In this document: one piece after another, positions 8,571 through 35,182 of the stretch
How positions within the stretch are numbered: position 1 is the first letter of the stretch
Layout of the letters: every line of letters begins with the position of its first letter
Assembly (NCBI GenBank): GCA_964371745.1
Contig: CAYJNS010000003.1
Coordinates: 1 to 36,818 of the forward strand
Direction of reading: 5' to 3'
Source: an uncultured Muribaculaceae bacterium
GTDB lineage: Bacteria; Bacillota_I; Bacilli_A; RF39; UBA660
DNA length: 36,818 nucleotides
The notes under the pieces: model-generated
What the model was told of the DNA's origin: nothing
What the model saw: the letters and a program-made list of their open reading frames with translations, nothing else
Database searches by the model: none
Program-made: the position numbers and the translations under genes

Positions 8571-8612
8571 AAATAACTCTTATAATAAGCATATAGGAGT
8601 TATTTTTAATTT
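8571..8612 (+). terminator. Probable recA terminator
   Basis: 14-bp stem 8571-8584 / 8592-8605 with one G-U pair and a 7-nt loop, followed by a T-rich tract. It overlaps a TTGATA (8558-8563) - 17 nt - TATAAT (8581-8586) promoter-like pair for rny. Confidence 0.45.
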
Positions 8613-8634
8613 CTAATAAATACAAGGAGGAAAA

Positions 8635-18776: not shown

Positions 18777-18947
18777 ATGAAAGTTAAAATAATTGATGAA
18801 ACACATGAAAAAGATTTAGAAAATGCTATAAATTCTTTCTTAAGCGGTGTGGATGGAGAAATAATAGATATTAAGTATCAAGTAGCAATCGGTATTTCAG
18901 GGGAAGAACAAATATATTGTTTTAGCGCAATGATACTTTATAATTAA
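18777..18947 (+). CDS. cse60: Cse60-family small sporulation-associated protein
   Basis: MKVKIIDETHEKDLENAINSFL...IDIKYQVAI...YCFSAMILY resembles Bacillus Cse60 (YteV). The likely start is ATG 18777 rather than TTG 18765. Confidence 0.55.
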   Translation: MKVKIIDETHEKDLENAINSFLSGVDGEIIDIKYQVAIGISGEEQIYCFSAMILYN

Positions 18948-19336
18948 ACCATATACATATTATTAACATTTGATTCAAAATCTTCAGTAGATAAAGTATT
19001 GTTTGTTTCAAGTTTAGAAACTCTATGTTCTAATCTATTAATTTGTCTTTCCATTTTTGCTAATCTACTTTCAATATCAGAATAATTTATATTATTTTGA
19101 CCAAGTGCCATATTAGGCATAGGTGTATTAGCATTAGGTTGCATGCCCATATTAGGATTCATAGGCATTGCCATATTAGGCCCCATGCCTACAGAAAAAC
19201 TAGATTGGGCCTCCATTTGAGGTGGATAAGGGTTATTTGCACTCATCATGTTAGGTTGCTGCATCATTTGTGGGTTTATTCCCCCTTGCATATAATCTGT
19301 TTGTTCATGAAAATAAGATGATCTATTTTTTTTCAT
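18944..19336 (-). CDS. Low-complexity Met/Pro/Asn/Gln-rich protein with a C-terminal coiled coil
   Basis: Strong RBS AGGAGG on the minus strand. PNM-type repeats (MGPNMAMPMNPNMGMQPNANTPMPNMA), then the heptad-like SRLAKMERQINRLEHRVSKLE. Confidence 0.7.
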   Translation of the reverse strand: MKKNRSSYFHEQTDYMQGGINPQMMQQPNMMSANNPYPPQMEAQSSFSVGMGPNMAMPMNPNMGMQPNANTPMPNMALGQNNINYSDIESRLAKMERQINRLEHRVSKLETNNTLSTEDFESNVNNMYMV

Positions 19337-20072: not shown

Positions 20073-20094
20073 ATTATTAGAAGGTAAGGTAGAA

Positions 20095-20850
20095 ATGAAA
20101 AAATTATTATACATATTATTTATATTAATACCATTAGCGGTTAATGCAGAAGGAACATGCTCTTACGAAGAACAAGCAGAGCTTTCAAGAAACGCTAACC
20201 TTATTAGTGTTAATTTTGAAGAAATAGTACTTGAAAAAGTTTTGGATGAAAATAGTGTATTGCCAGACCCTGCAATAGACGAAGATGAAAATGGCAATCC
20301 TATTGAAATGAAATATAAAATAGATGCATTAAGAGTAAATGTTTTGAATTTATCGGAAGACTATTATATAGATTTTAAAAATGAAACAACCGGAGAATTT
20401 TGGTCGATAGATTATGAAGATACAGAAGCTGGATATTATTATTTTAATCATGAAGATGTATATGATGTTCACAGTTTAACATATACAATTTTATCTTCTG
20501 ATAAAACTAATTGTTCACATGAAAAAATAAGATTAGGATATTTAATATTACCTAGATTAAACGATAATTATTATTTGGATATCTGTAGTGAATTTTCAGA
20601 TAAAACTGTCTGTCAAAAATATGTTACAATAGGTGATATTTCTATTGATGAATTTTATAATCAAATTGATTCTTATAGGGAAGAAGAAATAACTAATGAA
20701 GAACAATTGGAAGAAGAAAAAGAAAATGAAAAAAGTATAGTAGATTATATAATGGATAATATATATTATATACTAGCAGGTTTAATAATAGTTGTGATAC
20801 TGATTTTTATTATCAACATAATAATAAAAAGAAGGAGAACTCGCTTATGA
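20095..20850 (+). CDS. Module protein A1: secreted domain with 4 conserved Cys, C-terminal TM anchor and basic tail (unknown family)
   Basis: ATG 20095 follows gaaggtaagg. Signal peptide MKKLLYILFILIPLAVNA. C-terminal LAGLIIVVILIFIINIIIKRRRTRL. Paralogue of 24932-25681, sharing CSYEEQ..L...ANLI..N.E and a conserved Cys pattern. Confidence 0.8.
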   Translation: MKKLLYILFILIPLAVNAEGTCSYEEQAELSRNANLISVNFEEIVLEKVLDENSVLPDPAIDEDENGNPIEMKYKIDALRVNVLNLSEDYYIDFKNETTGEFWSIDYEDTEAGYYYFNHEDVYDVHSLTYTILSSDKTNCSHEKIRLGYLILPRLNDNYYLDICSEFSDKTVCQKYVTIGDISIDEFYNQIDSYREEEITNEEQLEEEKENEKSIVDYIMDNIYYILAGLIIVVILIFIINIIIKRRRTRL

Positions 20851-23800
20851 GAAAAATAATTAAATATTTAACATTTGTACTTGTTATTTACTTTTTTATG
20901 TTTTCAAATGTTAATGCAAATTATACTATTGAATTATCTAATTTGCAAAGCAATTTAAGAGACATTAACGTTGTGCCGAATGGTGGGTATGGAAATAGAA
21001 TAATAGTTGATAATTTATATATAGTTAATCATAGTGGTCTTGATTTGGTTGAAACAACATCTCAGATATACTCATATAAATCTGGAGTAACAAAAAAATC
21101 TGGAATACCTACAAATATTTCATCTGACGAGGATATGGAAAATAAAAATGCATATAGTCATGATGTTTTTTGGGTTATGCCATATGCAGCAGATATCGCA
21201 GAAAATAATAATTCTAAATTTACTAATGCATATTGTTTAGATTTAAATTTGAATGGTATCAGTGGCCCAGTTAGTGCGGAATCTGAGCAACTAATTTTAT
21301 TCGATGTTGAAAACGAATCAGTGTTAAGATATCATTCTGGATTATATGCAATTTTAGAATATGATGATAATTTAGGATTATCAGATCAAAATTTATATTA
21401 TGCCAAAGTTCTTGCACTTAGAATATTTTTAGGATTATATGGAGCATCAAGTAATCAAGATATATTTGATACTAATTCGTATCCTTGGTATAAAGATGCC
21501 TTAATAAACACATTTAATTTATGGTATGATGAAGATACGGATATTACATCTTCTTTTAATATTTTGAAAACATTAGATGGTAATTTTTCAATAAGTAGAA
21601 CCTCTGAATATCCAAATTACCAATTATATTCATTTGATAATACTTCAAAAAATGTTTATACTGCGATGTATGATATGGTTTTAGAAGGAATAGATGCAGC
21701 AATTGAAGGTTCTGTTAGCAGTAAAAATGATAGCGATTCTGGTTTTTATGTTATTTTAAGCCCTTTAAATTCAATTATAGATAAAGAAGGAGATATAATT
21801 AATTATTCAGCTAATTTACAAGCTAGTGTTGATGTAAAAGGATTTGCTTCTCAAGATAGAATAACAAATATAACATTAAGTTTAAATGGGTCAAATATTT
21901 ATATTAATCCTAATGAAGATTTATTTAATATAAAGAAAAATGGTAGTATGCAAAAAACTTCTTTAAATAATTTGAAAAACGAAGATTTATCTAAAATATC
22001 ACAAATAACATTTATTCATGATGTTAATGAAAATATATCACTATCATCTTGTGGTAATTTGAATTTTAAATTTGATATAAATTATACTTCAAATACTACT
22101 AATAGCGGACTGACGGAATATATTTATGTAAAATCAGATAAATCCGGTGATCAAAGATTTTTAGTTGAAAGTTCAAATAATGTTTCTGGGCCATCTGGTT
22201 CTATAAAAAACTATAGTGAATCTATTTCTATTCCTATTGACTGTAATAATACTCCTGATTGTGATACAACAATAAATATAGCAGGATCTTGCGAAGCTAA
22301 TGGTAATTTTAATGGGGAAATAGTAGCTCCAACAGATATATTAAATTGTATTATAGATGGTAGTGACGAAGCAAATAATTCTTATGCAATATCAAAACCA
22401 GGGGGGAATATATGCAGTGTAAATGATTCGGATGAGGGTTTATCACATTTATTAAATGATAATGAGTATTGTGAAGTTTTTTGTAAAGAGGATTATACTA
22501 ATATTAATCTTCCAGATATAGCGCACGCTAATAGTGGTAGATATTTTAAGCTAGAAGCTTTAATAACTGGTAAAAAAACTTGTTATACAACCGAAATAAA
22601 TTATGATGAATTTAATAGTGATTTAAATGCAGCAACGGCAGAAATGAGTGCAGCCTATAGACGCTTTGAAATAGCGACTAACTCACTTCAAAGTTTAGAA
22701 AATACATTAATTAGTAAAAATAATGATATGGTTTCTGCAATTAAGGATAAAGAAAGTCCTGAAATTTCATATGATTTAGTTAAAATAGCTGATGCACGTC
22801 AAATTGCTGCAAGCGCAGCGTTAACATATGCCGAAAACAAGTTAGATGCATTAGAAACAATTGATTCAAATGTAGATACAATTAGTACAAATTCTACAAG
22901 CATAAGTTCAAAAGAAAAGTCCGTTACTAGTAAACAAAATTTAATCGATTCATATAACAATCAAATAGATGCTATTAATAAGGCTAACGCTGATAAACCC
23001 GAGGATGAACATCAATCAACATCATATCAAGAATCTCGAATAAGCGCATTAACAGAAGAAATAAGGAATTTAAATTCTAGTATTACTGAGTTAAAATCTG
23101 ATAACGATGATTTAACTAAAAAAAATACTGAATTAAAGGAAAAATATAACATTCAAACATGGGAAACTATAGCAAGTCAACAAATAGTTGTTAATAATGC
23201 AAAAACGGAAAAAACTAATGCTGAAAATAATTATTATAAAGTTTGTTATACAGAAAAACATTGTGATAATGATGATAATTATTTATCATTAAAAATTTCA
23301 TATGATAATGCTGAAGAAGCTTATGATACTGCTTTAAATAATTTGGAATCTACTCTAAAAAGTATAGATGCTGAAATTTCTAATATGAATTTAGCAAAAT
23401 CTAAACAAGATTCCATTTTAGATCATATAATTGCCTGCGGTGAATGGGATGTCAATTTTAAAATAAATCCAACAATGACATTTGATTATGGCAGTGGATA
23501 TATGAATTATTTTGAAGATAAAGGTGTAACTAATTTAGTGAATACTAATAGTTCAACATACGTTACAGATGTATGGGGATGCGATTTTAACAATAATTCA
23601 TCTGCATATATAAATAATGAATATAATAGATGTTATGGTGGTAGAGTATTAGATAGTGAAAACGAATTATACGAAGAAATTACAATAACATATTATAAAG
23701 GTAATAAGGGGACTATAACTCTGCAAAGCGGGGAAAGTAGAATAGAACCAGTTAGTTATACAGGGAATACTGTTGATTATGTTGAATATGATGGTGTCGA

Positions 23801-24851
23801 AGGTCATGATGGATCATATACTTTTTATGATTCAAATAATAAATCTGAAAAATATCCATTTGGTAATTATAATGATAAACTTAATTATAACGTTTATGGT
23901 TCTGTTATTCAGTATAATATTTTTATACCTAAAGCAGAATTTATAAGTAAATCAAGCGAAGGAACCGAAGAATATGAAACACCTAGCGCTTTATATACTA
24001 CTTTTCCTACTGGTGAAGTTACTAAGGAAGCTGTAAGTAATAGTTCGATAATAAATGGTTTGCCAGTTGGATCAGATGAAAATAGTGGTAAATATACATT
24101 GATTATTGATGATTTAGGTGAATATTATGACGATTGTAGTTTAGGAAGACTAATTGATGCTGATCAAACTAAAAATTCAGTTGACGATGTTCTTAATGTC
24201 GCTGGTACAACAGGTAGATATATATGTGATTATATAATAGATTGTCCAGATTGTGATTATGTAGGTGAATGTGATGATGGTTTATGCGGTGAAGATATTT
24301 GTGAAACGTGTTTGTTTGTTGGTGGTATTTCACAATTATATTATAGAATTATAAGTTTAAATAATTTTAACCCGAATAATAGAAATTTAGGATATAATTT
24401 TGATACTGCTGACTATGATTTTGGTTTTATTAGAGGTAAAGCTGAATCAACTCTTGACTTTATTTCAAGAGATTCCATAGTTTTTGGCAAAGGCGAAGCA
24501 ATCTATGGTGAAGAACCATTAGCTTCAGTTACAATGACACCTTCTTTCGCTAATGATGTAAGAACTTATAATCGAGAAGAAGAAAATAAAGGAGCATACA
24601 ATAATGAAACACTAGTGTGTTACGATTATGGAACATATGAAAACGTAATGTGCTATTCAACATTTTTAGATAATTATAGTAAAAGCGGAGATATAATATT
24701 TAGTTCTAGCGAAATTAGACCTAGCGTAGATGAAAGAGATGATTATGAAGACACAGATGGTAATGATTATTGGGATTTTTACACATATGGTATTAATACT
24801 GATTTTGGTTCCACATCGCCTAATACGATAGGTGGACCATCTTGGAAATAG
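20847..24851 (+). CDS. Module protein B1: giant (1334 aa) secreted Cys-rich protein with a central coiled coil, ending in IGGPSWK (unknown family)
   Basis: ATGA overlap with A1 and RBS GAAGGAGA. Signal peptide ...FMFSNVNA. Conserved blocks shared with B2: YC.V.CKEDY, SGRYFK, C.EWD/C.GWD, FPTG, DLGE(Y/F)Y..C..GRL, DCP.C, ISLNN.NPN.R..GYNF.T, TYENV.CYS and the terminal TIGGPSWK. Confidence 0.85.
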   Translation: MRKIIKYLTFVLVIYFFMFSNVNANYTIELSNLQSNLRDINVVPNGGYGNRIIVDNLYIVNHSGLDLVETTSQIYSYKSGVTKKSGIPTNISSDEDMENKNAYSHDVFWVMPYAADIAENNNSKFTNAYCLDLNLNGISGPVSAESEQLILFDVENESVLRYHSGLYAILEYDDNLGLSDQNLYYAKVLALRIFLGLYGASSNQDIFDTNSYPWYKDALINTFNLWYDEDTDITSSFNILKTLDGNFSISRTSEYPNYQLYSFDNTSKNVYTAMYDMVLEGIDAAIEGSVSSKNDSDSGFYVILSPLNSIIDKEGDIINYSANLQASVDVKGFASQDRITNITLSLNGSNIYINPNEDLFNIKKNGSMQKTSLNNLKNEDLSKISQITFIHDVNENISLSSCGNLNFKFDINYTSNTTNSGLTEYIYVKSDKSGDQRFLVESSNNVSGPSGSIKNYSESISIPIDCNNTPDCDTTINIAGSCEANGNFNGEIVAPTDILNCIIDGSDEANNSYAISKPGGNICSVNDSDEGLSHLLNDNEYCEVFCKEDYTNINLPDIAHANSGRYFKLEALITGKKTCYTTEINYDEFNSDLNAATAEMSAAYRRFEIATNSLQSLENTLISKNNDMVSAIKDKESPEISYDLVKIADARQIAASAALTYAENKLDALETIDSNVDTISTNSTSISSKEKSVTSKQNLIDSYNNQIDAINKANADKPEDEHQSTSYQESRISALTEEIRNLNSSITELKSDNDDLTKKNTELKEKYNIQTWETIASQQIVVNNAKTEKTNAENNYYKVCYTEKHCDNDDNYLSLKISYDNAEEAYDTALNNLESTLKSIDAEISNMNLAKSKQDSILDHIIACGEWDVNFKINPTMTFDYGSGYMNYFEDKGVTNLVNTNSSTYVTDVWGCDFNNNSSAYINNEYNRCYGGRVLDSENELYEEITITYYKGNKGTITLQSGESRIEPVSYTGNTVDYVEYDGVEGHDGSYTFYDSNNKSEKYPFGNYNDKLNYNVYGSVIQYNIFIPKAEFISKSSEGTEEYETPSALYTTFPTGEVTKEAVSNSSIINGLPVGSDENSGKYTLIIDDLGEYYDDCSLGRLIDADQTKNSVDDVLNVAGTTGRYICDYIIDCPDCDYVGECDDGLCGEDICETCLFVGGISQLYYRIISLNNFNPNNRNLGYNFDTADYDFGFIRGKAESTLDFISRDSIVFGKGEAIYGEEPLASVTMTPSFANDVRTYNREEENKGAYNNETLVCYDYGTYENVMCYSTFLDNYSKSGDIIFSSSEIRPSVDERDDYEDTDGNDYWDFYTYGINTDFGSTSPNTIGGPSWK

Positions 24852-24877
24852 AAAATAAAAAGAATAGAGATTATTTA

Positions 24878-24907
24878 TTGCAATTTATGATGATTTTGTG
24901 ATAAAAT
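24878..24907 (+). promoter_or_regulatory. Putative extended -10 promoter of the second A/B module
   Basis: TTGCAA (24878-24883), 18-nt spacer ending in TGa, TAAAAT (24902-24907). It lies inside the loop of a 10-bp inverted repeat (24867-24876 / 24904-24913). Confidence 0.4.
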
Positions 24908-24931
24908 AATCTCGAAAGGCAGGTTGAAAAA

Positions 24932-25681
24932 TTGAAAAAAATCTTGTTAACTTTGGTGGTATTGCTTACACCAATGTTGGTTAGTGCAGAAAGTGCTTGT
25001 TCTTATGAAGAACAAAGTGATTTAAATGCAAATGCTAATCTTATTAAAATAAATTATGAAGCGAAAGAAAGGTTAGTAGATCCAGATGAATATTTTTATC
25101 CAGAGGATGTAGAAACTGAAGAAGAACGTGCAGAATTTGAAATGTATGAATCTTATTTGGAAATAAATGTTTTAAATATGACAGATCAATATTACATTGA
25201 AATGACTAATAATTTAAATAATGAAGTTAATACAATAAATTATAATGATTTAGTTGATGGTGTTTATAAATATGAATTGACTGATTTAAGTGAAGTAATT
25301 ACATTTGATTTTTTAATTAAATCATCTTCGCTTACTTCTTGTCCGAATGAATCTATTAAATTAACGTATCTTACAACTCCTAGAGAAAACGAATATTATT
25401 ATTATGATGTATGTAGTGATTTAAGTGATGAAAATATTTGTAAACAATTTGTAACTGGTGAAGAAATAACCATAGATGAATTTCAAAAGCAAGTTGAAGA
25501 TTTAGCAATTGTAGATGATGGTACAACAAGTGGAGAAGATAAAAACAGTGAAGATTCTAATTCGTTTTTAGATTTTATTAACGACAATATTATTGTTATA
25601 GCTGTTGGTTTAATTGTAGTGGTAATAGGGGTAATAGTTGCTACAGATGTGATACGAGGGAAAAGGAGAAAATTAAAATGA
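24932..25681 (+). CDS. Module protein A2 (paralogue of A1)
   Basis: TTG start follows aaaggcagg. Signal peptide MKKILLTLVVLLTPMLVSA. C-terminal TM plus RGKRRKLK. Same 4-Cys pattern as A1. Confidence 0.8.
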   Translation: MKKILLTLVVLLTPMLVSAESACSYEEQSDLNANANLIKINYEAKERLVDPDEYFYPEDVETEEERAEFEMYESYLEINVLNMTDQYYIEMTNNLNNEVNTINYNDLVDGVYKYELTDLSEVITFDFLIKSSSLTSCPNESIKLTYLTTPRENEYYYYDVCSDLSDENICKQFVTGEEITIDEFQKQVEDLAIVDDGTTSGEDKNSEDSNSFLDFINDNIIVIAVGLIVVVIGVIVATDVIRGKRRKLK

Positions 25682-28533
25682 AAAAGATGAAATTATTTTT
25701 AACTTTTACTTTGTTTATTATGCTGAATTTTATAATTGTTAATGTTGATGCAAGTGAAAATGATTATAAAATGGGAAACACCAATAAAATGGATGATTTA
25801 AAAGTGTTCGAAAATTATAGTCCATACGAATACGATTTGGAGTATAATGGAAAGTGGTATCCAGCAATATGCATAGATCCTGCTGCAGTTCCTGGGAAGG
25901 ACTCTATTAAAAAAATCGAATTGTCAACAGAAGACTATGCAATTATAGAAAATATTCTAAGTGCAGATATAGAGGGTTTATCTGATGAATCTTATCCATT
26001 TGACACATTATATTATTATATGACTACTGAACAAAAAGAACATTTTTATACTAAATTAATAGCGGTTCGAGTGTATACAACAAATTTTTCTACTACTATT
26101 GATAGAAAAACATCAAAAATTGCTTCTGGTTATGTACATATAGGTAAAGAATGGTTTGAAAATGAAAGTTGGTATGCTGCAAGTTATATACAAAAAAATT
26201 ATAGTCAAGATACATTATCAAAATATAACTTTGTGGATGCTGATATTGAAAAAAATGCGAAAAAATTAGTTGAAGATGCTATGGAAAATTCATCTAATAA
26301 TAATACAACAGAAGTTGTTATGCCTAGTATAGAAGTTATTTCTGGGAATTCACGAATTTCTGTAGATGAAAATAATCAAAAAATCATTTCAAAAACAGTA
26401 ACATTGAATCCACAAAATTTTGGTGAAAATGGAATGCTTAATTCATTATCAATAACTTCAGCTGATTTAAGTTTGTTTTCAAGCATTAAAATTAATGGAG
26501 AAGAGCAAAGTTCATTAACGGATTATGCATTAAAAGATAATAAAACAATAACTATTGAATTGACTGGTTATGGATTAGATGATGATTGTGATGAAACTGA
26601 TTTTAGTTTAACATATACTTATTACGACGATGCATTAAAATCAGATGAAAATGTATCAAGAGAAGTAGTGGCTTTTCAAAAAGGTTCTGCTTATCAAAGA
26701 TATATTATTTATATAGAATCTGATGGGCAAGATGATGGTAAAAGAACTGAAACAAAACCATTAGGGATGGATTTATGTCCTTATTCATGTAATACAACTA
26801 TAACTATTCCTAATACATGTTTAAATGTTGATGGGACTTATAATGAAGATGATGTTGCTGGAGTTATAACTGGACCAACAAATATTGGTAAATGTATAAC
26901 TAATACAAATGCTGAAGATGAAGCTGGTAATAAATATCAAGCTGGAGGATGCTCTTATACAGTTTTAGAAAACGGTGAAACAAAAGAAATCCCTAATGGA
27001 TTAGCAACTGTTTCAACAAGTAAATATTGTAATGTTTCATGTAAAGAAGATTATAATCCAATAAAATTTTCTGGAGTTCAAAGAGCTACAAGCGGCAGAT
27101 ATTTTAAAGTAGCTGCAGAAATATCAGGAACTAAATCTTGTTATACAAATGAAATAAATGTAGATCAGTTTGAAATTGATATAGCTGATGCATCTTCAAG
27201 AATGAAGGAAGCACTTACCGCATCTGAAGAAGGCACAATAGATCAAGCATTTTACGATGCTGCTAAAGCTGATTTTGATAAAGCTGTTAAAGATATAGAA
27301 TCTTGTACAGGTTGGGATATGCAGTATGCTTTAACTCCAACTGTCGAGTATACTTATGAAGACAATTATTTTAAAGATTTAGAAATAGCTGATGAAGATA
27401 AAAATTTAAATATTGTTTCTGATACAAATACAGATAGAGAATATTATTATTGTACTGATGGTAATAAAAATTATACTGATTGTGAGAACGTTATTAAAGA
27501 TGAATTAAAAACTTCTAAAAATTATTCTTATGTAAATATAGATGGAAGTTCTACTGGTGTATCAGTAAATATTCCAAAAACAAGTTATATAAAACAAAGT
27601 ATTTCAAAAACAGTATTATATGATACTCCAGAAATATTTTATACTGAGTTTCCAACTGGAAATATAATTTACAATCCAACAGATGAACAAAAAGATCAAA
27701 GTCAAATAGTTGACGGTTTACCAATAGATGGTAACTTAGAAAATGGTTTATATAACTTTAAATTTACTATAAAAGATTTAGGTGAATTTTATAATAATTG
27801 TGAACCTGGTAGACTAGTAAATGATGACGATAGAAAATCTGTTGCCGAAGAATTAACAGATACTAATACAACTAAATTTGAAAATGAATATGTATGTAAA
27901 TATTTAGTAGATTGTCCTGAATGTGAATTTGAAGGAGATTGGGAAGAATTTGATCCTTATTGTCCTAATTGTATTTTCACAGGAAATATTGATAATTTGA
28001 GTTTTAGAACAATAAGCTTAAATAATGTTAATCCTAATGATAGAGATATGGGATACAATTTTAATACAGAAACTAATTTTGGATTTATTTCTGGAAAAGC
28101 AGAAAAAACATTAGGTAAAATCGAAGATAATGAAGGTATAATTGGATTGGGTGAAAGCATATATGAACAAACTCCAGTTTTATCAGTAGAAGTTACACCT
28201 GATTTAGCAAAAACAATAAGAGAAACAAACAATGATTTAGGATCGTATCAAAATGATACACTTACTTGTTATGATTATACAGAAAATGGTGTAACATATG
28301 AAAATGTATTCTGTTATAGTGATTATTTAGATATGTTTACTGATGGAGATTATGTAGAGTATAGTGAAAACTTTACATTTGCTAATAGACCTGAAGAAGA
28401 ACAAAGAACAAATAATACATCACCATATTGGCAAACTTATACAACGACTGATAATAAAGAATTATATGATGATATAAGTAAAGATTTTGGTATAGATGAT
28501 GATACAACTATTGGTGGACCATCATGGAAATAA
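25678..28533 (+). CDS. Module protein B2: 951-aa secreted Cys-rich paralogue of B1, ending in IGGPSWK
   Basis: ATGA overlap with A2 and RBS AAAGGAGA. Signal peptide ...FIIVNVDA. Same conserved blocks as B1 but without the long coiled-coil segment. Confidence 0.85.
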   Translation: MKKMKLFLTFTLFIMLNFIIVNVDASENDYKMGNTNKMDDLKVFENYSPYEYDLEYNGKWYPAICIDPAAVPGKDSIKKIELSTEDYAIIENILSADIEGLSDESYPFDTLYYYMTTEQKEHFYTKLIAVRVYTTNFSTTIDRKTSKIASGYVHIGKEWFENESWYAASYIQKNYSQDTLSKYNFVDADIEKNAKKLVEDAMENSSNNNTTEVVMPSIEVISGNSRISVDENNQKIISKTVTLNPQNFGENGMLNSLSITSADLSLFSSIKINGEEQSSLTDYALKDNKTITIELTGYGLDDDCDETDFSLTYTYYDDALKSDENVSREVVAFQKGSAYQRYIIYIESDGQDDGKRTETKPLGMDLCPYSCNTTITIPNTCLNVDGTYNEDDVAGVITGPTNIGKCITNTNAEDEAGNKYQAGGCSYTVLENGETKEIPNGLATVSTSKYCNVSCKEDYNPIKFSGVQRATSGRYFKVAAEISGTKSCYTNEINVDQFEIDIADASSRMKEALTASEEGTIDQAFYDAAKADFDKAVKDIESCTGWDMQYALTPTVEYTYEDNYFKDLEIADEDKNLNIVSDTNTDREYYYCTDGNKNYTDCENVIKDELKTSKNYSYVNIDGSSTGVSVNIPKTSYIKQSISKTVLYDTPEIFYTEFPTGNIIYNPTDEQKDQSQIVDGLPIDGNLENGLYNFKFTIKDLGEFYNNCEPGRLVNDDDRKSVAEELTDTNTTKFENEYVCKYLVDCPECEFEGDWEEFDPYCPNCIFTGNIDNLSFRTISLNNVNPNDRDMGYNFNTETNFGFISGKAEKTLGKIEDNEGIIGLGESIYEQTPVLSVEVTPDLAKTIRETNNDLGSYQNDTLTCYDYTENGVTYENVFCYSDYLDMFTDGDYVEYSENFTFANRPEEEQRTNNTSPYWQTYTTTDNKELYDDISKDFGIDDDTTIGGPSWK

Positions 28534-28546
28534 AGGATGTGAATAG

Positions 28547-28948
28547 ATGAAGGGTGCTTATTGGGGTTACTGGTTAGTAACACTTGGCGTATTTATAGTT
28601 ATAGTTATGCTACTTGTACAAAATGTAACTACTGGAAATACAATTAGTTATACAATGATTAAAGAAGTATCTGAGGCAGCAATGGTTGACTCAGTTGATT
28701 ATGGATATTATCGTATATATGGAGAAGTGAAAATTAATAAAGAAAAATTCATGGAAACTTTCATTCGTAGAATGGCTGAAACAGTAGATGGTTCAACAAC
28801 TTATACTATTGATTTTTATGATATTTACGAAGCCCCACCTAAGGTAAGTGTAAAAGTTTCTAGTGCATCTAATACATTTAACGTTGCAGGTGATTCTACT
28901 GCATTTGATATAGTAGAACGTATAGATGCAGTACTTGAAGGAAATTAA
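28547..28948 (+). CDS. N-terminally anchored small protein, pseudopilin/TadE-like by position and topology
   Basis: Starts 13 nt after the B2 stop, with RBS AAGGATG. Single N-terminal hydrophobic helix WLVTLGVFIVIVMLLV followed by a ~100-aa soluble domain. Family not recognised. Confidence 0.35.
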   Translation: MKGAYWGYWLVTLGVFIVIVMLLVQNVTTGNTISYTMIKEVSEAAMVDSVDYGYYRIYGEVKINKEKFMETFIRRMAETVDGSTTYTIDFYDIYEAPPKVSVKVSSASNTFNVAGDSTAFDIVERIDAVLEGN

Positions 28949-28974: not shown

Positions 28975-29766
28975 ATGGGAAGTTTTTTAGGAATTATTAA
29001 AAGATTTTTATCAAATAAAAATACAGTTACTATTTTAGCGGTAATAATTGGGATTATAGTACTTTGGTTCTTTTATGATATGCGTGTTAATGAAGCTATA
29101 TCGCCACTGTCAATACCTTATGCTAAAGCTGAAATTGGTGCAACTAATGAAATAACTGAAGATGATATTGGATTTGTTGAAATTAATAGTGCATTTGTTA
29201 GTAGTGTAAATATAATAACAAATTCACAATTATTAATTGGTCAATATGTAACTACTGGAACATCAATACCAGAAGGAGGGCTTTTCTATCAATCACAAGT
29301 TGTAGAAAAAGGAGCTTTACCTAACGCGGTATTTGATGATATACCAGAAGGTTATACATTATTTTCATTACCGGTAAATAATAACTCAACATATGGTAAC
29401 TCAATATATCCTGGAGATAGAATTGATTTATATGTTAAGTTTACAGATGACTTAAATAAAATAAATTTTGGTAAATTTGTAGAGAGTATAGAAGTTTTAG
29501 CAGTTCGTGACTCATCACAAAATGATGTGTTTGAAAATACTGATACTGGTCAATCAGCAATATTATTATTTGCTGTACCTGATGATGTAAATGATCCAAA
29601 TAAAAATTTATTTAACTTACTAACTCAAGCAAGTTTTATTTCTGGACTTGAAATAATACCAGTTCCAAGAAATAAAGCTTACACTGATACATCAGCCGAG
29701 ACAACAGTTCAAAGTGATACAATCAGAGCGTATATAGAAGCTAAAACAACAACAGTAAATAACTAA
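28975..29766 (+). CDS. cpaB: CpaB/RcpC-like Flp pilus assembly protein (SAF domain)
   Basis: N-terminal TM helix. SAF-like segment YAKAEIGATNEITEDDIGFVEI. Then IPEGYTLFSLPV...IYPGDRIDLYV, typical of CpaB. Located directly upstream of the ATPase. Confidence 0.6.
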   Translation: MGSFLGIIKRFLSNKNTVTILAVIIGIIVLWFFYDMRVNEAISPLSIPYAKAEIGATNEITEDDIGFVEINSAFVSSVNIITNSQLLIGQYVTTGTSIPEGGLFYQSQVVEKGALPNAVFDDIPEGYTLFSLPVNNNSTYGNSIYPGDRIDLYVKFTDDLNKINFGKFVESIEVLAVRDSSQNDVFENTDTGQSAILLFAVPDDVNDPNKNLFNLLTQASFISGLEIIPVPRNKAYTDTSAETTVQSDTIRAYIEAKTTTVNN

Positions 29767-29782: not shown

Positions 29783-30874
29783 GTGAATGATGCAATATTT
29801 TCACAATTAGATTTTGGTCCATTAAAAGAATTTCTTGACGATGAAAATGTTACAGACGTTTCATACGGTAATGGTGGCCAAATACATTTAAAAACACTTG
29901 ATAAAGGTGTTTATAGAATTGAAAGACCAGACATTAATAATGCATTAATGGAAAAGCTGGCCTTTCAGTGTTCTAATGTAATGGGTACTACATTTAATAT
30001 GGCGCACCCTTTTTTAGATGCTGAAAGTACAGAGCTTCGTTTAAACTTTGTACACGAATCAATAGCAACTAATGGAGTAGCTTGCGTTATACGTAAAACT
30101 CCAGCTAAAATAAGATTAAATAAAGAGAAATTATTGGATGAAAAATATATAACTGAAGAGTTGCATAACTTTTTAGTTACATGTGTACATGGACATTGTA
30201 ATATCATTGTAAGTGGAGAAACTGGTTCTGGTAAAACAGAGTTAGTAAAATATTTAGCAGCTCAAACAGGTGAAACAGAAAAAGTAATAACTATTGAAGA
30301 TACATTAGAGCTTCATTTAGACAAAATATTTCCACATAGAGATATAGTTGCTATGAAAACAAATAATATAGCATCATACTCTGATGTACTTGTTACTTGT
30401 ATGAGACAAAATCCTCGTTGGATTTTACTATCAGAAGTACGTTCTGCAGAAGCAGTTACAGCTGTTAGAAATTCAATATCATCTGGACATAATATTATAT
30501 CAACAATACACTCTGATAGAGCAAAAAATGTACCAATGCGTCTATATTCACTTCTTGAATCTAATCAAGATATAGATCAGTTTTTAAAATCTATTCATAG
30601 ATATGTACAGCTTGCTATTCATGTAAAAGGATATATGAGTAAAGAACTTGGTAGATTTCAAAGGGAAATTGTTGAAATATGTGAATTTTATGTAACCGAT
30701 GATAATGAAGCAAATTTAAATATAATATATAAAAAGAATTTAGATGGTAAAGTAGCTGTAAGTAATCCATCTAAATATTTAATAGATTATTTAGGTGCTC
30801 AAGGTGTTACTTTAGATGGGAATTTATTTAAAGAAGAAACAGTAAATAATGATAATTTAGTTGAATCATTATAG
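29783..30874 (+). CDS. tadA: CpaF/TadA-type secretion ATPase (T2SS-E / VirB11 superfamily)
   Basis: GTG start follows AGAGGGTGA. Walker A SGETGSGKTE. Walker B/Asp-box region MRQNPRWILLSEVRSAEA. His box SGHNIISTIHS. 363 aa. Confidence 0.85.
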   Translation: MNDAIFSQLDFGPLKEFLDDENVTDVSYGNGGQIHLKTLDKGVYRIERPDINNALMEKLAFQCSNVMGTTFNMAHPFLDAESTELRLNFVHESIATNGVACVIRKTPAKIRLNKEKLLDEKYITEELHNFLVTCVHGHCNIIVSGETGSGKTELVKYLAAQTGETEKVITIEDTLELHLDKIFPHRDIVAMKTNNIASYSDVLVTCMRQNPRWILLSEVRSAEAVTAVRNSISSGHNIISTIHSDRAKNVPMRLYSLLESNQDIDQFLKSIHRYVQLAIHVKGYMSKELGRFQREIVEICEFYVTDDNEANLNIIYKKNLDGKVAVSNPSKYLIDYLGAQGVTLDGNLFKEETVNNDNLVESL

Positions 30875-30885
30875 AAAGGTAGTTT

Positions 30886-31791
30886 ATGGGAACAGGTTTA
30901 GAACTTTTAATATTACTAGCACTCGTTATATTTATAATTGTTTATAGAATGAATCCTGGAGAAAAAACATATAAGTTTTTTGTAACTAAGGTTTCTGAAG
31001 CTTATGAAAAGTTTGCTCCGTATTCATTTAAAGAAGTAAGAAAAAAAACTAAAGCATTAGGCCAAGAATATACAGCAAAGCAGTATACTGCTCAAGTAAT
31101 AATTTTTGCAGCTGTTGCAGGTGGTATATCATATTTTTACTTTTATAGTATTATATGGGCAATTATTTATGCTGTTATAGCAGTGTTATTTATACCATAT
31201 TTAGCATATTTGCGTAGTATGAGACTTTATAGTGAATATATTTTTGAACAAATACAAATATATACTACCAACGTTATAATGGAATTTAATACAACACAAA
31301 GTTTTGTTAAATCACTTGAAGGAGTAAGAGACTCTGGAATACTGGAAGACCCTGTATTAACTGATTTAAAAAACATGATACAAATGTCATATGATAATGG
31401 TACAATAGATGAATCAATTATTTATTTTAATGAAAAATACCCATATTATATGGTTAAAAATATGAACCAATTATTTTTACAGATTACTAAAGAAGGAGCT
31501 AGAGATTCAGGTCAATCTTTAGAAAATATGTCACTAGATATAGACTCACTTGTTGAAGGCGTTTATAGAGATCAAATGGATAGAAAAGCATTCCATGGTA
31601 AATTTGTAAGATTTGGTATGATATTATTTTTACTAGTTTTAGCGCTTCAATATATGTTAGGTGTTGATAACTATTTAGAATTACTTGAAACATGGTATGT
31701 TCAAATAATATTACATATGATTATAATTGTTAATGCATTTTTCTTAATTAAAGGAGAAAAATATTATAACGAAGATATAGGTGGTGAATAA
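30886..31791 (+). CDS. tadB: TadB-like inner-membrane platform protein (T2SS-F family)
   Basis: 301 aa. Topology is an N-terminal TM, a TM pair, a cytoplasmic ~130-aa helical domain and a C-terminal TM pair. Located immediately after the ATPase. Called from topology and synteny, not motifs. Confidence 0.55.
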   Translation: MGTGLELLILLALVIFIIVYRMNPGEKTYKFFVTKVSEAYEKFAPYSFKEVRKKTKALGQEYTAKQYTAQVIIFAAVAGGISYFYFYSIIWAIIYAVIAVLFIPYLAYLRSMRLYSEYIFEQIQIYTTNVIMEFNTTQSFVKSLEGVRDSGILEDPVLTDLKNMIQMSYDNGTIDESIIYFNEKYPYYMVKNMNQLFLQITKEGARDSGQSLENMSLDIDSLVEGVYRDQMDRKAFHGKFVRFGMILFLLVLALQYMLGVDNYLELLETWYVQIILHMIIIVNAFFLIKGEKYYNEDIGGE

Positions 31792-31793: not shown

Positions 31794-32582
31794 ATGCCGT
31801 ATGAAGTTTTAATTATAGCAGCCTTAGCATTTATTGTAATGACAGTAAATGGTCATATAAGCGTTACTAAGCTTGTTAGTGATAATGAAGCATTATTTAG
31901 AAAATTAAAAGAAGAAGATTGGGACTTTTTAGTTAGAGCTAAATATGGTGAAAATGCTAATCCGAATTCTTTATTTAATAAAAGAATAAAAACAGGACTT
32001 ATTACATTTTTTGTAGCAATATTATTTTTCTTAAATAATTTTAGCGCTCTAAGTATATTAGTAGCACTTATAGCAGCATATTTTTTATTTAAATCTAGTT
32101 ATTCGCAGTTAAAAGGTTTTTATAAAAAAAATATTCACTTAATAGATGATATGCTTCCACATTATTTAAAAAATATAGAAATATTGATTCAACATTATAC
32201 AGTGCCTGTAGCTATTGGTAAATCAATGGCTGATGCACCAGATATATTTAAAAATGGATTGCAAGATTTAATTAATGAAATTAATAGTGGTGATAATACA
32301 ATTGATCCATATATGAATTTTGCTAAAAAATATCCAGTAAGAGATTCAATGAGAATGATGAGACTTTTATATCGTTTATCACTTGGTAGACAAGAAAGAA
32401 AACAAGAACAGTTATTAACATTTTCAAAATCAATTTCCAGTTTACAACAAAAAGCAAGAGATACAAGATATAAAAATAGACTTAATAAAATGGAAGGTAA
32501 GACTATGGGAATGCTTGTAGCTACTGGATTAGGTGTTATGGTACTTCTAATTTTAGCAGTTTTACAAATGATGAACATGTAG
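31794..32582 (+). CDS. tadC: TadC-like inner-membrane platform protein (T2SS-F family)
   Basis: 262 aa. Same topology class as the preceding gene and a 2-nt gap. The paired platform genes are characteristic of Tad loci. Confidence 0.55.
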   Translation: MPYEVLIIAALAFIVMTVNGHISVTKLVSDNEALFRKLKEEDWDFLVRAKYGENANPNSLFNKRIKTGLITFFVAILFFLNNFSALSILVALIAAYFLFKSSYSQLKGFYKKNIHLIDDMLPHYLKNIEILIQHYTVPVAIGKSMADAPDIFKNGLQDLINEINSGDNTIDPYMNFAKKYPVRDSMRMMRLLYRLSLGRQERKQEQLLTFSKSISSLQQKARDTRYKNRLNKMEGKTMGMLVATGLGVMVLLILAVLQMMNM

Positions 32583-32606: not shown

Positions 32607-32635
32607 TTGATATTTAAAAAAATATTAGGTATAAT
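32607..32635 (+). promoter_or_regulatory. Near-consensus sigma-A promoter in front of the pilin-like genes
   Basis: TTGATA (32607-32612), exactly 17 nt, TATAAT (32630-32635). RBS AGGAGG (32651-32656) precedes ATG 32666. Confidence 0.7.
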
Positions 32636-32665: not shown

Positions 32666-32938
32666 ATGAAAGAAGCAACGGGAGAATTAAATATGACAGT
32701 TATTACTGTTGTAGCAATAGCAGCAGTAGCAGCATTAGTATATGCGTTCGTTTGGCCAGCTATTGAAGATTCAATTAGAAAAAACACAATTTGCTCAGGT
32801 GGTAATGGTACAGTAGTAGATGGAGAAAAGGCAGTATGTACAAGTTTAGCTGATGGTCAAGTACAATGTAATCATCCTGATATTGATGCTAATGAACCAT
32901 TTACTTGTGATAATGTAGCTAATAGTTCAACTCCTTAA
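32666..32938 (+). CDS. Flp-like pilin candidate 1 (90 aa, 4 Cys in the C-terminal part)
   Basis: Short charged leader MKEATG, then the hydrophobic helix ELNMTVITVVAIAAVAALVYAFVW, then a small Cys-containing domain. Has a strong RBS and its own promoter. Confidence 0.5.
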   Translation: MKEATGELNMTVITVVAIAAVAALVYAFVWPAIEDSIRKNTICSGGNGTVVDGEKAVCTSLADGQVQCNHPDIDANEPFTCDNVANSSTP

Positions 32939-32947: not shown

Positions 32948-33178
32948 ATGAAAGAGGCTGTAGGAGAATTAAATACTACTGTAATAATCGTAGTCATAGT
33001 GGGGACATTAGCGGCCTTTTTTTTCTTAGTAATTTGGCCGGCAATAAATAATGATTTTAATAGAAATTCAAATTGTTCTGATGCTATATGTCCGCCTTGT
33101 GAGTCACCACAAGGATGTACTGTAGTTATGTGTACATTAGATGGTGGCAGTACAATAGAATGTCCATATAAGGGGTGA
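32948..33178 (+). CDS. Flp-like pilin candidate 2 (76 aa, 6 Cys)
   Basis: The N-terminus MKEAVGELNTTVIIVVIVGTLAAFFFLVIW is nearly the same as in candidate 1. The C-terminal 40 aa contain 6 Cys. Confidence 0.5.
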   Translation: MKEAVGELNTTVIIVVIVGTLAAFFFLVIWPAINNDFNRNSNCSDAICPPCESPQGCTVVMCTLDGGSTIECPYKG

Positions 33179-33186: not shown

Positions 33187-33699
33187 ATGAAAGAATCAGT
33201 AAGTAGTGCGTTTTTATTTAATATAGTAGTGCTTTTTATATTACTATTTACAGGTATAATGAGTTTAACAATTAATAGAACAAGAGCATATACTGTTAAA
33301 GATAATATTATAAATGCAATAGAAAGAAGCGATGGGAATTTAGATTTAACTATTCCTTTAGGAAGTAACTCTGATATTGTAAATGCTATGGCAGATGATT
33401 CTTATAGGGCAACAGGTAATTGTGAAGAATTTAATAGTCAGGATAGTGATAATACATATAGTGAATTTGATAGAGATAATACATATAGTGGATTTGATAG
33501 AGATGGAAAAGGACCACTTACTTTTAATAATGAAAACTCTTCTATCTGTATTAAAAAAATAAATTCCGGTATTAACAATGGCTGTTATTATAATATTATT
33601 TTATTTTATAAATTAGACTTACCAATATTAAGAAATGTTTTTGAATTTTCAGTAACTGGAGAAACCAAAGTATTACCAGGGTGTGGTGATAATTCATGA
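33187..33699 (+). CDS. Pseudopilin/TadE-like N-terminally anchored protein (170 aa)
   Basis: N-terminal helix AFLFNIVVLFILLFTGIMSL. C-terminal block ILFYKLDLPILRNVFEFSVTGETK is shared with the next ORF. Contains an in-frame 27-bp tandem duplication. Confidence 0.4.
   Translation: MKESVSSAFLFNIVVLFILLFTGIMSLTINRTRAYTVKDNIINAIERSDGNLDLTIPLGSNSDIVNAMADDSYRATGNCEEFNSQDSDNTYSEFDRDNTYSGFDRDGKGPLTFNNENSSICIKKINSGINNGCYYNIILFYKLDLPILRNVFEFSVTGETKVLPGCGDNS
33448..33501 (+). repeat. 2 x 27-bp in-frame tandem repeat (DNTYSEFDR / DNTYSGFDR)
   Basis: gataatacatatagtgaatttgataga (33448-33474) is repeated at 33475-33501 with one A-to-G difference. Confidence 0.95.
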
Positions 33700-34154
33700 A
33701 TAATTCAATAGGTACCACTTGGGTAATGGGCTTAATGGTAACTTTTATATTTTTATTTTCTGCGTTTTTAATACTTGCAATTAATTATTCTGATGTTTTT
33801 AGACTGAGAAATGAAACTCTCACAATTTTAGAAAAATATGAAGGTTATACTGGTCAATCGAGATTAATTATAGATAATTTATTACAAACTAATGCTTATA
33901 AAACAAAAAGTGATTGTGAAGAAACTGAATATGGTGTAACTTTATTAGACGGAACTAGTGGTAGTATAGGTGCAGAAGATGCATTTTATTGTATAAGAAG
34001 AATAGATGATAATAAGGCACATGAATATTATGAAATTAAACTTTTTTATAAATTCAATTTACCGGTTATTGGAGAAATATTAACATTTCCAATTACTGGA
34101 GAAACCAAAGATATAACATTTTATGATTCTTTGGAAAATGATTATATAGAATAG
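33696..34154 (+). CDS. Pseudopilin/TadE-like protein, paralogue of 33187-33699 (152 aa)
   Basis: ATGA overlap with the upstream gene. N-terminal helix WVMGLMVTFIFLFSAFLILAI. C-terminal KLFYKFNLPVIGEILTFPITGETK. Confidence 0.4.
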   Translation: MNNSIGTTWVMGLMVTFIFLFSAFLILAINYSDVFRLRNETLTILEKYEGYTGQSRLIIDNLLQTNAYKTKSDCEETEYGVTLLDGTSGSIGAEDAFYCIRRIDDNKAHEYYEIKLFYKFNLPVIGEILTFPITGETKDITFYDSLENDYIE

Positions 34155-34165: not shown

Positions 34166-35182
34166 ATGAACGTAATAATATCAAATAAATATCAAACACT
34201 TTTAGCAACTCTGGATATAGATGTTATAAAAGTAATTAATGGAGTGTTTACTTCAGAAGATATAATTAATCAATTTAGTAATTTTTTCTATAATAAAATG
34301 ATTATAGATATAACTGCAATTGGAGATTATCAAAATATTAATGTTATTAGAAATTTAACTATGAATTTAGATATGAGCAAGGTTATATTTTTACTAGATG
34401 ATTCAGTTGAAGTCAATGCACCTAAATATTTATCGCAATTAGTTTCAATGGGTATATATAACTTTACTAGTAAACCTGATATAGTAAAGTTTTTGATTGA
34501 TAATCCAAATCAATATAAGGATGTTGCAAATTATCAACAATTATCTACTGAAGGATCAACAGATGCTCCAGCTCCAGCTCCGAATAATATATTTAATTCA
34601 AATGCTGCACAACCACAACAAAAAATGGTACAGCAAAGAATTATAGGTCTTAAAAATGTAACAGATCATTCAGGATCTACAACTTTAGCCTATATTATGA
34701 GTAAACATTTAAGTAAATTATATAAAGTAAAAACAGTAGAAGTAGATTCATATGATTTTACTAATTTAAATGATAAAACGTTGGAAAGTATAGCTTCTAA
34801 TACGTTATCGAATTATATTACATCTAATATAGATAGTGAAATTATTATAGTTGATTTAAATAAATATGAAGGGGAAGGTATATGCTCTGAAATATTATAT
34901 TTAATTGAACCGGGTATGATTAAATTAAATAAATTAATTAAACAAGACGAAAAAATATTTGATAAATTAAAGGGTAAAAAAATTATTCTTAATAGAAGTG
35001 TATTAACCGCTAAAGATGTATCAGATTTTGAAAAAGAAAGTGGTAGTAAAATATACTTTAATCTACCAAATTTAGATGATAAACTTGAGCATGATAAAAC
35101 TGTAGTTGGATTTTTAATTGCACTAGGTTTTGCTAGATTTAGTGAAAATGATAATAAAGGCGGCTTATTTAACATGTTTTAA
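34166..35182 (+). CDS. TadZ/CpaE-like protein: receiver-like N-domain plus a ParA/MinD-like domain with a degenerate Walker A
   Basis: RBS AGGAGG. N-terminal ~110-aa alpha/beta-like domain, a low-complexity linker (DAPAPAPNN...QPQQK), then IGLKNVTDHSGSTTLAYIMSKHL where a MinD-type KGGxGK[ST] would sit, and later IIIVDL. Confidence 0.45.
   Translation: MNVIISNKYQTLLATLDIDVIKVINGVFTSEDIINQFSNFFYNKMIIDITAIGDYQNINVIRNLTMNLDMSKVIFLLDDSVEVNAPKYLSQLVSMGIYNFTSKPDIVKFLIDNPNQYKDVANYQQLSTEGSTDAPAPAPNNIFNSNAAQPQQKMVQQRIIGLKNVTDHSGSTTLAYIMSKHLSKLYKVKTVEVDSYDFTNLNDKTLESIASNTLSNYITSNIDSEIIIVDLNKYEGEGICSEILYLIEPGMIKLNKLIKQDEKIFDKLKGKKIILNRSVLTAKDVSDFEKESGSKIYFNLPNLDDKLEHDKTVVGFLIALGFARFSENDNKGGLFNMF

Follow-up and report, generated by a model that had tools for sequence, protein, structure and literature searches.

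The subject of this analysis is a pair of secreted proteins, B1 and B2, encoded on a 36,818-nt stretch of DNA (contig CAYJNS010000003.1, assembly GCA_964371745.1; hereafter the window, G+C ~26%) from an uncultured low-GC gut Firmicute that appears to carry one divergent Tad-like (type IVc-like) filament machine. B1 and B2 were found to be paralogues ending in the same short tail, which is conserved throughout a large family, and their genes are linked to the filament operon. The N-terminal module of B2 resembled thioester domains (TEDs) in its predicted fold and in its motifs, and neither protein has a known anchor. B1 and B2 may be alternative adhesin heads of the one filament, each with a probable thioester at one end and a tail that docks in trans onto a minor pilin; we regard this reading as quite possible, a little short of evenly balanced. 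All features lie on the forward strand unless marked otherwise.

The B1 gene (20847-24851) encodes 1334 amino acids (aa) and the B2 gene (25678-28533) 951 aa; both products carry a signal peptide, and B2 was the protein that was modelled. By BLASTP, residues 1015-1334 of B1 matched residues 620-951 of B2 with 39% identity over 344 columns (E 2e-64), and the Cys-rich middle regions (B1 472-675, B2 371-574) matched with 33% identity (E 7e-22). At the DNA level only four short patches, 70-88% identical, could still be recognised, which points to an old duplication. An earlier note on this DNA had described B1 and B2 as giant, secreted, Cys-rich, ancient paralogues with a conserved C-terminal domain of ~290 aa. 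The signal peptides, the BLASTP matches and the sparse DNA similarity agree with this description, except that "giant" is a generous term for 951 and 1334 aa and that the conserved domain extends nearer to 320-330 aa (in B1, residues 1015-1334, nt 23889-24848). The motifs it listed were all found at the positions given: YC.V.CKEDY at 22467 and 27025, SGRYFK at 22533 and 27091, C(G/T).WD at 23436 and 27304, the blocks FPTG, DLGE(Y/F)Y, CP(D/E)C and ISLNN, and GGPSWK at 24831-24848 and 28513-28530. Its counts of 25 Cys in B1 and 21 in B2 were also reproduced.

Relatives of B had to be collected by exhaustive profile search, given that a word-indexed homologue search was nearly blind to the family (3 and 2 matches). 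The word-indexed search gave two B relatives only (P0002 and P0003), both with GP[SA]WK ends and both directly upstream of DUF5411, CpaB and T2SSE genes. The exhaustive search gave 734 representative clusters (at 50% identity) at E ≤ 1e-3 and 404 at E ≤ 1e-30, mostly from human and animal gut metagenomes. The genomic context was obtained from a scan of reference genomes, which yielded seven loci in metagenome-assembled genomes labelled uncultured Bacilli, Tenericutes, Mollicutes or Erysipelotrichaceae, and from a metagenome scan, which yielded 80 further B loci, largely from human gut. Loci were annotated by phmmer, and the locus counts below rest on 84 complete B genes from ~88 distinct related loci. 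Three sequence sets were used for B, namely alignment A5 (71 sequences), alignment A8 (44 sequences) and the matches to an N-terminal hidden Markov model (HMM; 167 sequences); tail counts over representatives refer to the best 152 of the 734, which are mutually <50% identical.

No Pfam family was matched by B1, B2 or 44 diverse members of the B family (in B1 there was coiled-coil noise only, confined to residues 670-780), no NCBIfam model matched the A or B proteins, the A proteins were without a Pfam match as well, and neither single proteins nor a 71-sequence profile picked up a match among the PDB sequences. As these sequence searches and Foldseek were all negative for it, the C-terminal region matches no described family. 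The earlier note had named two outcomes that would refute its reading, a match of this domain to a well-known family with an established function and an IGGPSWK end not kept in orthologues; neither was found. The note had also reported neither an LPXTG signal nor a C-terminal transmembrane (TM) helix in B1 and B2, which was confirmed; among the best 152 representatives no C-terminal TM helix was found, and LPXTG occurred once, by chance. Judged by their sequences, B1 and B2 would not be sortase substrates, as the combination of LPXTG, hydrophobic segment and basic tail is missing from both. The A-B family and the GPSWK tail were not found in the published literature, within the paper searches made.

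The exact end G-P-x-W-K-COOH was found in 120 of the 152 best representatives, and most of the others ended in G-P-[SA]-[WYF]-[KR]; six carried 2-6 extra residues beyond the motif. A GP[SA]WK end was present in 11/11 loci examined first and in 78 of the 84 complete B genes, the tails of the latter being GPSWK (70), GPAWK (8), GPAYR (2), GPSWR (2), GNAWK (1) and GPAWR (1). In alignment A5 the five terminal columns had identities to B2 of 1.00, 0.96, 0.51, 0.92 and 0.97. The linker before them mostly had a column occupancy of 0.03-0.66, with identity ≤0.39, and its length varied by >20 residues. In both AlphaFold models the last 20-30 residues had a predicted local distance difference test score (pLDDT) of ~50, against >90 in the core. 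In B2 this end consists of a gap-rich, non-conserved linker (residues 927-946, nt 28456-28515; pLDDT ~50) and the terminal pentapeptide G-P-S-W-K-COOH (residues 947-951, nt 28516-28530), the proposed docking plug; in B1, GPSWK lies at nt 24834-24848. An invariant tail on a variable tether, with no sign of folding onto its own protein, is as expected of a docking peptide.

The end IGGPSWK had been singled out earlier as invariant and as hinting at recognition or processing. The final eight residues, TIGGPSWK, are identical in B1 and B2 and GP[SA]WK is conserved in orthologues, whereas T-I-G is not kept family-wide. Of the two suggested roles recognition is preferred, and processing is unsupported, because nothing cleavable follows the motif. 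Covariation between tail variants and DUF5411 residues was uninformative, since the tail varies too little.

The AlphaFold2 (AF2) model of B2 had a mean pLDDT of 80.5. When it was searched with Foldseek, the top match was 6fwy, the thioester domain of Enterococcus faecium EfmTIE86 (E 9e-7, probability 1.00), followed by weaker matches to MSCRAMM and pilin Ig folds. The matching part of B2 (residues 28-366, nt 25759-26775) is predicted to be a Class II thioester-domain-like module in which a helical lobe is followed by a sandwich of seven strands and a beta-hairpin. Along the chain, the N-terminal strands run up to Cys65; then come five helices, the strands of the sandwich and the hairpin, whose second strand (340-347) is opened by Gln340. 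Class II TEDs have been defined by a topology and by motifs with the Cys in [YFL]C-Phi-zeta and the Gln in Phi-Q-zeta-Phi-Phi (PMC6194298), and the secondary-structure order of the B2 model fits that topology. The putative bond pair is Cys65 (nt 25870-25872, AICIDP) and Gln340 (nt 26695-26697, YQRYI) in B2, and Cys130 (nt 21234-21236, YCLD) and Gln436 (nt 22152-22154, QRF) in B1.

These two residues stand out from a surrounding region of very low identity. The Cys was present in 71/71 and the Gln in 70/71 sequences of A5, both were kept in 44/44 sequences of A8, and 163 of the 167 N-terminal HMM matches kept the pair. The Cys context is [YF]C[LI]D (Y or F at -1 in 67/71, D at +2 in 57/71; YCLD in B1 and ICID in B2). 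The Gln context is xQ(R/N/D)(F/L/I)(I/Y/V), the Gln being followed across the 71 sequences by R, N, D, Q or S and then by two hydrophobic positions. From the model and these sequence contexts, a Cys-Gln thioester bond in B is probable.

Behind this module, B2 residues 367-745 (nt 26776-27912) form a predicted Cys-rich beta core with a helical hairpin at 495-542 and a pLDDT mostly >90; residues 366-951 modelled alone had a pLDDT of 84.5. In a conservation ranking, the most conserved blocks of the family lay in the core (YCxVxCKEDY, SGRYFK, TKSCYT and DEAGNxY). The core is followed by a Cys-rich CPxC...CPxC spacer (residues 746-779, nt 27913-28014; pLDDT <50) and by an alpha/beta subdomain (residues 780-926, nt 28015-28455; pLDDT 70-90) with the motifs ISLNNxNPNxR, GYNF, GExIY, CYDY and YENVxCYS. 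The spacer varies in length across the family through large indels, such as the Cys-rich repeats in L009 (~11700-12000); its sequence resembles a zinc ribbon. In the alignment, B1 has a ~300-aa coiled-coil insert (residues ~590-860, nt 22615-23426) exactly where B2 has the short hairpin 495-542, which suggests a length-adjustable stalk inside the conserved core. A Foldseek search of B2 366-951 against PDB and BFVD returned nothing at E ≤ 1e-3, so that the modelled core, including the C-terminal domain, would be without a known structural relative in these databases. A toxin or pore reading of this part was rejected, as the matches, which included diphtheria-toxin homologues, pore-forming toxins and ssRNA-phage maturation proteins, were at chance level (E ≥ 2e-3, probability ≤0.57).

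The two A-B pairs head a run of genes on the same strand, which continues 14 nt after B2 with a gene for a DUF5411 protein (28547-28948; 133 aa; PF17424, 6.6e-54) in which the leader MKxxYWG precedes a hydrophobic helix and a small head. This gene is followed by genes for a CpaB/RcpC-like protein (28975-29766; PF16976 1e-5 and TIGR03177 6.5e-9, both below curated cut-offs) and a TadA/CpaF-type secretion ATPase (29783-30874; PF00437 5.3e-28). The closest solved relatives of the ATPase were CpaF (3.6e-19) and then FlaI and VirB11, all its NCBIfam matches being below cut-off. Two polytopic membrane proteins (30886-31791 and 31794-32582), without a Pfam match, take the TadB/TadC position, as judged from position, size and hydrophobic segments. 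Then come two small pilin-like genes (32666-32938 and 32948-33178, the latter named pil2) with the leader MKEA(T/V)GELN, a hydrophobic helix and a Cys-rich head, and two pseudopilin-like genes, pp1 and pp2 (33187-33699 and 33696-34154), in which the N-terminal hydrophobic helix is preceded by a short leader of the type M(K/R)E(A/S)IGG; none of the four matched Pfam. In all five pilin-like proteins, DUF5411 included, a hydrophobic helix comes after a short leader, M-(K/R)-E-x-x-(x)-G. DUF5411 has this leader in the form M-K-E-x-x-W-G and by its sequence looks like a third minor pilin beside pp1 and pp2.

With a CpaF-closest ATPase, a CpaB-like protein and five pilin-like genes sharing a leader, the locus is read from its sequence as a divergent type IV filament operon that is Tad-like rather than a confirmed Tad system. 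A conjugative type IV secretion system (T4SS) was also considered in view of the VirB11-like ATPase scores, a weak T4SS_pilin match of the 119-aa protein that ends the operon, and the part that TIEpLS20 plays in conjugation. It was rejected because no VirB4, VirD4 or relaxase domains were found among the window open reading frames (ORFs) scanned, CpaF is the closest relative of the ATPase and a CpaB-like protein is present. The canonical Gram-positive tad operon of Bulleidia has tadV, TadE/F/G and no A-B pair, a layout that differs from that of the window.

DUF5411 lay directly downstream of B (gap 9-21 nt) in 77 of the 84 loci, and in four a second A-B pair stood there instead; the remaining operon genes were in the same order wherever the contig was long enough. 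Median identity across loci was 63% for DUF5411, 38% for pp1/pp2 and ~28-32% for A and B; the motor genes were 67-82% and the TadB/TadC-position proteins 61-74% identical. In a subgroup of loci with B proteins of 1260-1680 aa (L063, L066, L068, L070-L074, L076-L082 and L085-L089), DUF5411 stays with A-B where motor genes are not nearby, which argues that it belongs to the same module. In the subgroup member scanned, L068 (8263-21034), DUF5411 carries a fused C39-like peptidase domain (~395 aa), and the genes after it encode a sortase, a 900-aa VWA protein and an ABC/FtsX transporter.

Two loci with two modules each, L015 (2052-12252) and L028 (2089-12240), have two tail types and two DUF5411 genes, one flanking each A-B pair. 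Their order is DUF5411' (269 aa)-A'-B' (GPAYR), then A-B (GPAWK or GNAWK)-DUF5411 (~140 aa), so that a second tail type coincides with a second DUF5411 paralogue, which has a C-terminal extension. DUF5411 is accordingly the best docking candidate on three grounds: it is the constant downstream neighbour of B, retained even where the Tad genes are >10 kb away or absent; it is 63% conserved, against 38% for the pseudopilins and ~30% for A and B; and L015 and L028 pair two tail types with two DUF5411 genes. The invariance of the tail likewise fits a conserved partner. Five loci have tandem A-B pairs, and in each of them the B paralogues were less alike in the N-terminal than in the C-terminal region, which fits interchangeable heads on a common socket. 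The same tail on both paralogues would allow the same machine to be used while the N-terminal heads differ.

Each B gene is preceded by a gene for its cognate partner, a protein of ~250 aa: A1 (20092-20850) for B1 and A2 (24932-25681) for B2, and in both pairs the stop codon of A overlaps the start of B (ATGA). A1 has a signal peptide and a ~170-aa ectodomain, which an acidic linker joins to the C-terminal TM helix and its basic tail. A2 has an A1-like architecture (36% identity, E 5e-40), and four ectodomain Cys (C23, C137, C161 and C170) were invariant in a nine-sequence alignment. A precedes B in 72 of the 84 complete loci, and the 4-nt overlap was seen in 47 of those 72. The attachment of B had been called unexplained in the earlier note; this holds for B itself, with neither LPXTG nor TM helix, whereas each B has a coupled, C-terminally membrane-anchored A and an adjoining pilus operon. 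A is co-produced with B and has diverged in parallel with it; A is best explained as a head-specific, membrane-bound handler of B; alternatively, it could be the anchor itself.

In the proposed mechanism, B would be secreted through Sec and co-synthesised with a membrane-anchored A of its own, which is suggested to hold or mature B at the membrane. The N-terminal Class II-type module would bind a target covalently through its Cys-Gln thioester. The Cys-rich core would serve as the conserved body, its hairpin being extended in B1 into a long coiled coil, and would be followed by the flexible, variable linker and the invariant G-P-[SA]-W-K-COOH. The pentapeptide would dock B in trans onto a minor-pilin-like protein, most probably the DUF5411 protein encoded just downstream. 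The likely mode of docking would be beta-strand addition, as for the PilC/PilY1 tail on PilK and the CpaL tail in cis.

If A were the anchor, B would be a cell-surface adhesin held by A: the A ectodomain would bind B, with GPSWK in a pocket of A, the TM helix of A would anchor the complex, and the filament genes would be co-regulated and unconnected. The translational coupling in most loci (ATGA overlap in 47/72), the own A of every B copy and the A-B-DUF5411 trio without adjacent Tad genes in one subgroup speak for such an arrangement, and the invariant A residues could form a conserved pocket. However, A is as divergent as B (~30% identity) and the tail is invariant. In addition, DUF5411 is kept with A-B even without nearby motor genes, hence in the same module, and a membrane-tethered 250-aa protein would need to hold B across the wall. 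We therefore consider anchoring by A unlikely.

Alternatively, B could be cargo that is pushed through the wall by a type II secretion-like pseudopilus, the tip of which would read the C-terminal motif. B has a Sec signal and no anchor, the filament genes include small pilins and several pseudopilins, and a natural-language-processing study of gene context labelled a related DUF5411 operon of Clostridia a secretion system (PMC9523054). That operon (CpaF, PilC/GspF-like and DUF5411 genes; Roseburia, Ruminococcus and Eubacterium), flagged there as an uncharacterised system of secretion or pilus type in gut Firmicutes, shares DUF5411 and the CpaF-type ATPase signature with the window; it was described with an internalin-like protein rather than an A-B pair, and no function or structure was assigned (PMC9523054). 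A released thioester adhesin would be of little use, precedents placing such domains on stalks or pilus tips, and the pattern of variable head and constant tail fits a displayed adhesin. Moreover, type II secretion substrates are not known to carry a linear C-terminal signal. Export of B as cargo is thus rather improbable, somewhat more so than its anchoring by A.

The terminal pentapeptide might also be purely structural, with the Trp and the carboxylate packing onto the C-terminal subdomain and no partner involved; conserved C-terminal aromatic residues often cap domains. Yet the tail had a pLDDT of ~50 in both AF2 models though the alignment was deep enough for >90 in the core, the linker before it varies by >20 residues in length, and a few members tolerate 2-6 residues after the motif, so that a purely structural role is improbable. 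Least credible of all, and very improbable, is a terminal Lys that acts as covalent acceptor, for the thioester of another B or for a transpeptidase, to give polymers or attachment to pilin: thioester domains do acylate Lys amines of their targets (PMC4450167), nearly all members end in Lys or Arg and a sortase gene follows A-B-DUF5411 in one subgroup, but Arg, found in several members, is unable to do the same chemistry, and neither a sortase (in the window or most loci) nor an LPXTG donor was found. Each of these four explanations fits the conservation pattern less well than docking of the tail onto a minor pilin does.

The docking model draws on PilC/PilY1 (PilC1/PilC2 of Neisseria, PilY1 of Pseudomonas), large Sec-exported non-pilin adhesins that vary at the N-terminus, are conserved at the C-terminus and are held at the pilus tip by their last 10-12 residues (PMC13533445; bioRxiv 10.64898/2026.09.18.752573). 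Docking at the tip requires the PilC tail, and the tail by itself suffices for it; the tail contributes a beta-strand to the minor pilin PilK, is disordered in models of PilC on its own and is identical in PilC1 and PilC2 of N. meningitidis; in the Tad pilus of Caulobacter, the last six residues of CpaL give a beta-strand in cis that is needed for pilus assembly (PMC13533445; bioRxiv 10.64898/2026.09.18.752573). B, too, is large, Sec-exported and non-pilin, lies beside a minor-pilin-like gene, and comes in paralogue pairs whose members share one short tail, disordered in models of B on its own, and are less conserved at the N-terminus than at the C-terminus. The B host is monoderm, its machine is Tad-like rather than of the type IVa (T4a) kind, the tail has 5 rather than 10-12 residues, and B has a dedicated partner, A. 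Docking is known for PilC/PilY1 and is proposed here by likeness of pattern; B would be a tip adhesin that is PilC/PilY1-like by analogy and not by homology, and is no member of that family, as it has no propeller. CpaL/TadG (Tad, type IVc) resembles the present system in the Tad-type machine and the extreme C-terminus as strand donor. CpaL has its own N-terminal pilin-like domain and a strand in cis, whereas B carries a Sec signal that is cleavable and lacks a pilin-like helix; were the model right, the two halves would be encoded by separate genes here, the pilin-like one by DUF5411 and the large one by B.

Among the Class II TIE adhesins (EfmTIE86, BaTIE, SaTIE and TIEpLS20), the EfmTIE86 TED was the best structural match (B2 ~30-365); the Cys and Gln contexts of B fit both motifs, and the lobe, sandwich and hairpin come in the same order. 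B differs from these adhesins in having no LPXTG/sortase anchoring, no evident CnaB isopeptide stalk and no TQxxPhiW, and its Cys-Gln spacing is 275-306 residues as opposed to 171-204. As far as the model goes, B would be a thioester-domain protein in the structural sense only. Cpa of the Streptococcus pyogenes sortase pili also displays a covalent-binding thioester domain at a pilus end; its pilus is sortase-polymerised by unrelated machinery, with the tip covalently joined to the shaft. MshQ of the Vibrio MSHA pilus is a non-pilin of ~1200 residues encoded next to minor pilin genes, with a C-terminus that AlphaFold predicts to be donated to the PilK homologue; it differs from B in its unrelated sequence, its diderm T4a-type system and its want of a thioester domain.

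Several observations weigh against B being a thioester-bearing head docked on a Tad-like filament. B has no sequence or fold relationship to PilC/PilY1 and no IPR008707 beta-propeller: the Neisseria_PilC propeller had no Pfam match in B1, B2 or the 44 members, and Foldseek found no propeller, nor a CpaL/TadG fold, with B2 or B2 366-951. The order B then DUF5411 is the reverse of pilX-pilY1. The tail, with its five residues and a Gly-Pro start, is shorter than the PilC plugs. A, as a membrane anchor made with B, would be a simpler route of attachment, and the subgroup listed above has A-B-DUF5411 with no Tad genes within 10 kb. Except for the ATPase domain, the machine was identified by sub-threshold matches; the Flp signature G/xxxxEY is absent from the pilin leaders (MKEATG/ELNMTV), and no prepilin peptidase (TadV) gene was recognised in the window. 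The thioester assignment draws on structure and motifs only. The 6fwy match had a TM-score to target of 0.40 and a root-mean-square deviation of 12.6 with the whole protein as query. The third TED motif, TQxxPhiW, is not kept in the B family. Pfam TED models matched 0/44 B members, and the PDB TED sequences were unmatched by the profile. Given the loss of TQxxPhiW and sequence profiles unconnected to known TEDs, the B N-terminus is termed thioester-domain-like. TQxxPhiW is replaced by a near-invariant A129-x-R131 on helix 117-137, and bond formation does not require the Gln and Trp that are conserved in this motif (PMC6194298).

A more specific version of the docking model is a split Tad tip, with DUF5411 as the adaptor, a thioester "harpoon" adhesin plugged in trans through a GPSWK-COOH tag and A as the handler, which would make up an undescribed class of Gram-positive filament. 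This version is offered tentatively, and we lean against it more than against docking as such. If true, it would be the first case of a type IV filament with a thioester adhesin and of a Tad-type system with a trans-plug, and the pentapeptide would serve as a portable tag by which proteins are loaded onto pili of this kind. The novelty would lie in the combination of a C-terminal-plug pilus-tip adhesin with a thioester adhesin, in a new fold and in a large unannotated gut family; this family of 734 clusters is unnamed, without a Pfam model and, over two thirds of the protein length, without a structural relative. If the docking model is right, the C-terminal plug principle of PilC/PilY1 (2026) would extend to monoderm Tad-like filaments, and covalent thioester capture, not yet seen together with a dynamic type IV filament, would be joined to one. 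It would also explain how uncultured gut Bacilli with reduced genomes attach to hosts or partners; under this model, swapping of A-B cassettes should vary antigens and receptors, and the five-residue tag might serve to bring foreign proteins to a pilus tip.

At the end of the operon lie a cytoplasmic protein of 338 aa (34166-35182) and a two-TM protein of 119 aa (35259-35618). The former was assigned to the TadZ/CpaE position by position and conservation only; it had no Pfam, NCBIfam or PDB match, and a degenerate P-loop-like "SGSTT" was read from its sequence. The latter has a Cys-rich acidic tail and a weak match to PF18895 T4SS_pilin (0.0075), is conserved at the operon end and occurs in 1-4 tandem copies in related loci (e.g. 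L006 10526-12303). The remainder of the window holds ordinary chromosomal Firmicute genes (aspS, recA, rny, rnj, ftsY, ylxM, dacA, argS and trmB). A tblastn search of the B2 core against plasmid and phage collections gave no match, and hence there is no sign of a mobile-element origin.

Some ORFs of the window are without a match, namely two adjacent ORFs of ~200 aa after aspS (2783-4005) and two after a DnaI-like gene (6246-7413). On the reverse strand, a 130-aa ORF (18944-19336) has a weak XhlA match and is otherwise family-less, and a 137-aa N-terminally anchored protein (35662-36075), convergent with the operon end, matched no family. In the P0003 locus, L001, the region just upstream of A (7970-9147, minus strand) encodes a thioredoxin/PedC-like protein and an Rce1-like CPBP protease, divergent to A-B; neither gene is present in the window. 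These neighbours could be relevant to disulfide formation in the Cys-rich A-B proteins.

A promoter and terminator scan over 18 kb found no terminators and many promoter-like sites, and was uninformative at 26% GC. Among its two best-scoring sites was a near-consensus sigma-70-like sequence, TTGATA-17-TATAAT (32607-32635), just upstream of the first small pilin gene, which could be an internal promoter for high pilin expression. The product of the second small pilin gene, pil2, ended in C-x-[YWF]-K-G-COOH (CPYKG, CVWKG, CAYKG, CPFKG or CVYKG) in every locus examined, that is, in the window and in L001, L006, L007, L009, L012, L015, L028, L042, L046, L052 and L069. This aromatic-Lys end resembles the [WY]-[KR]-COOH end of B, and both termini might share a kind of binding site.

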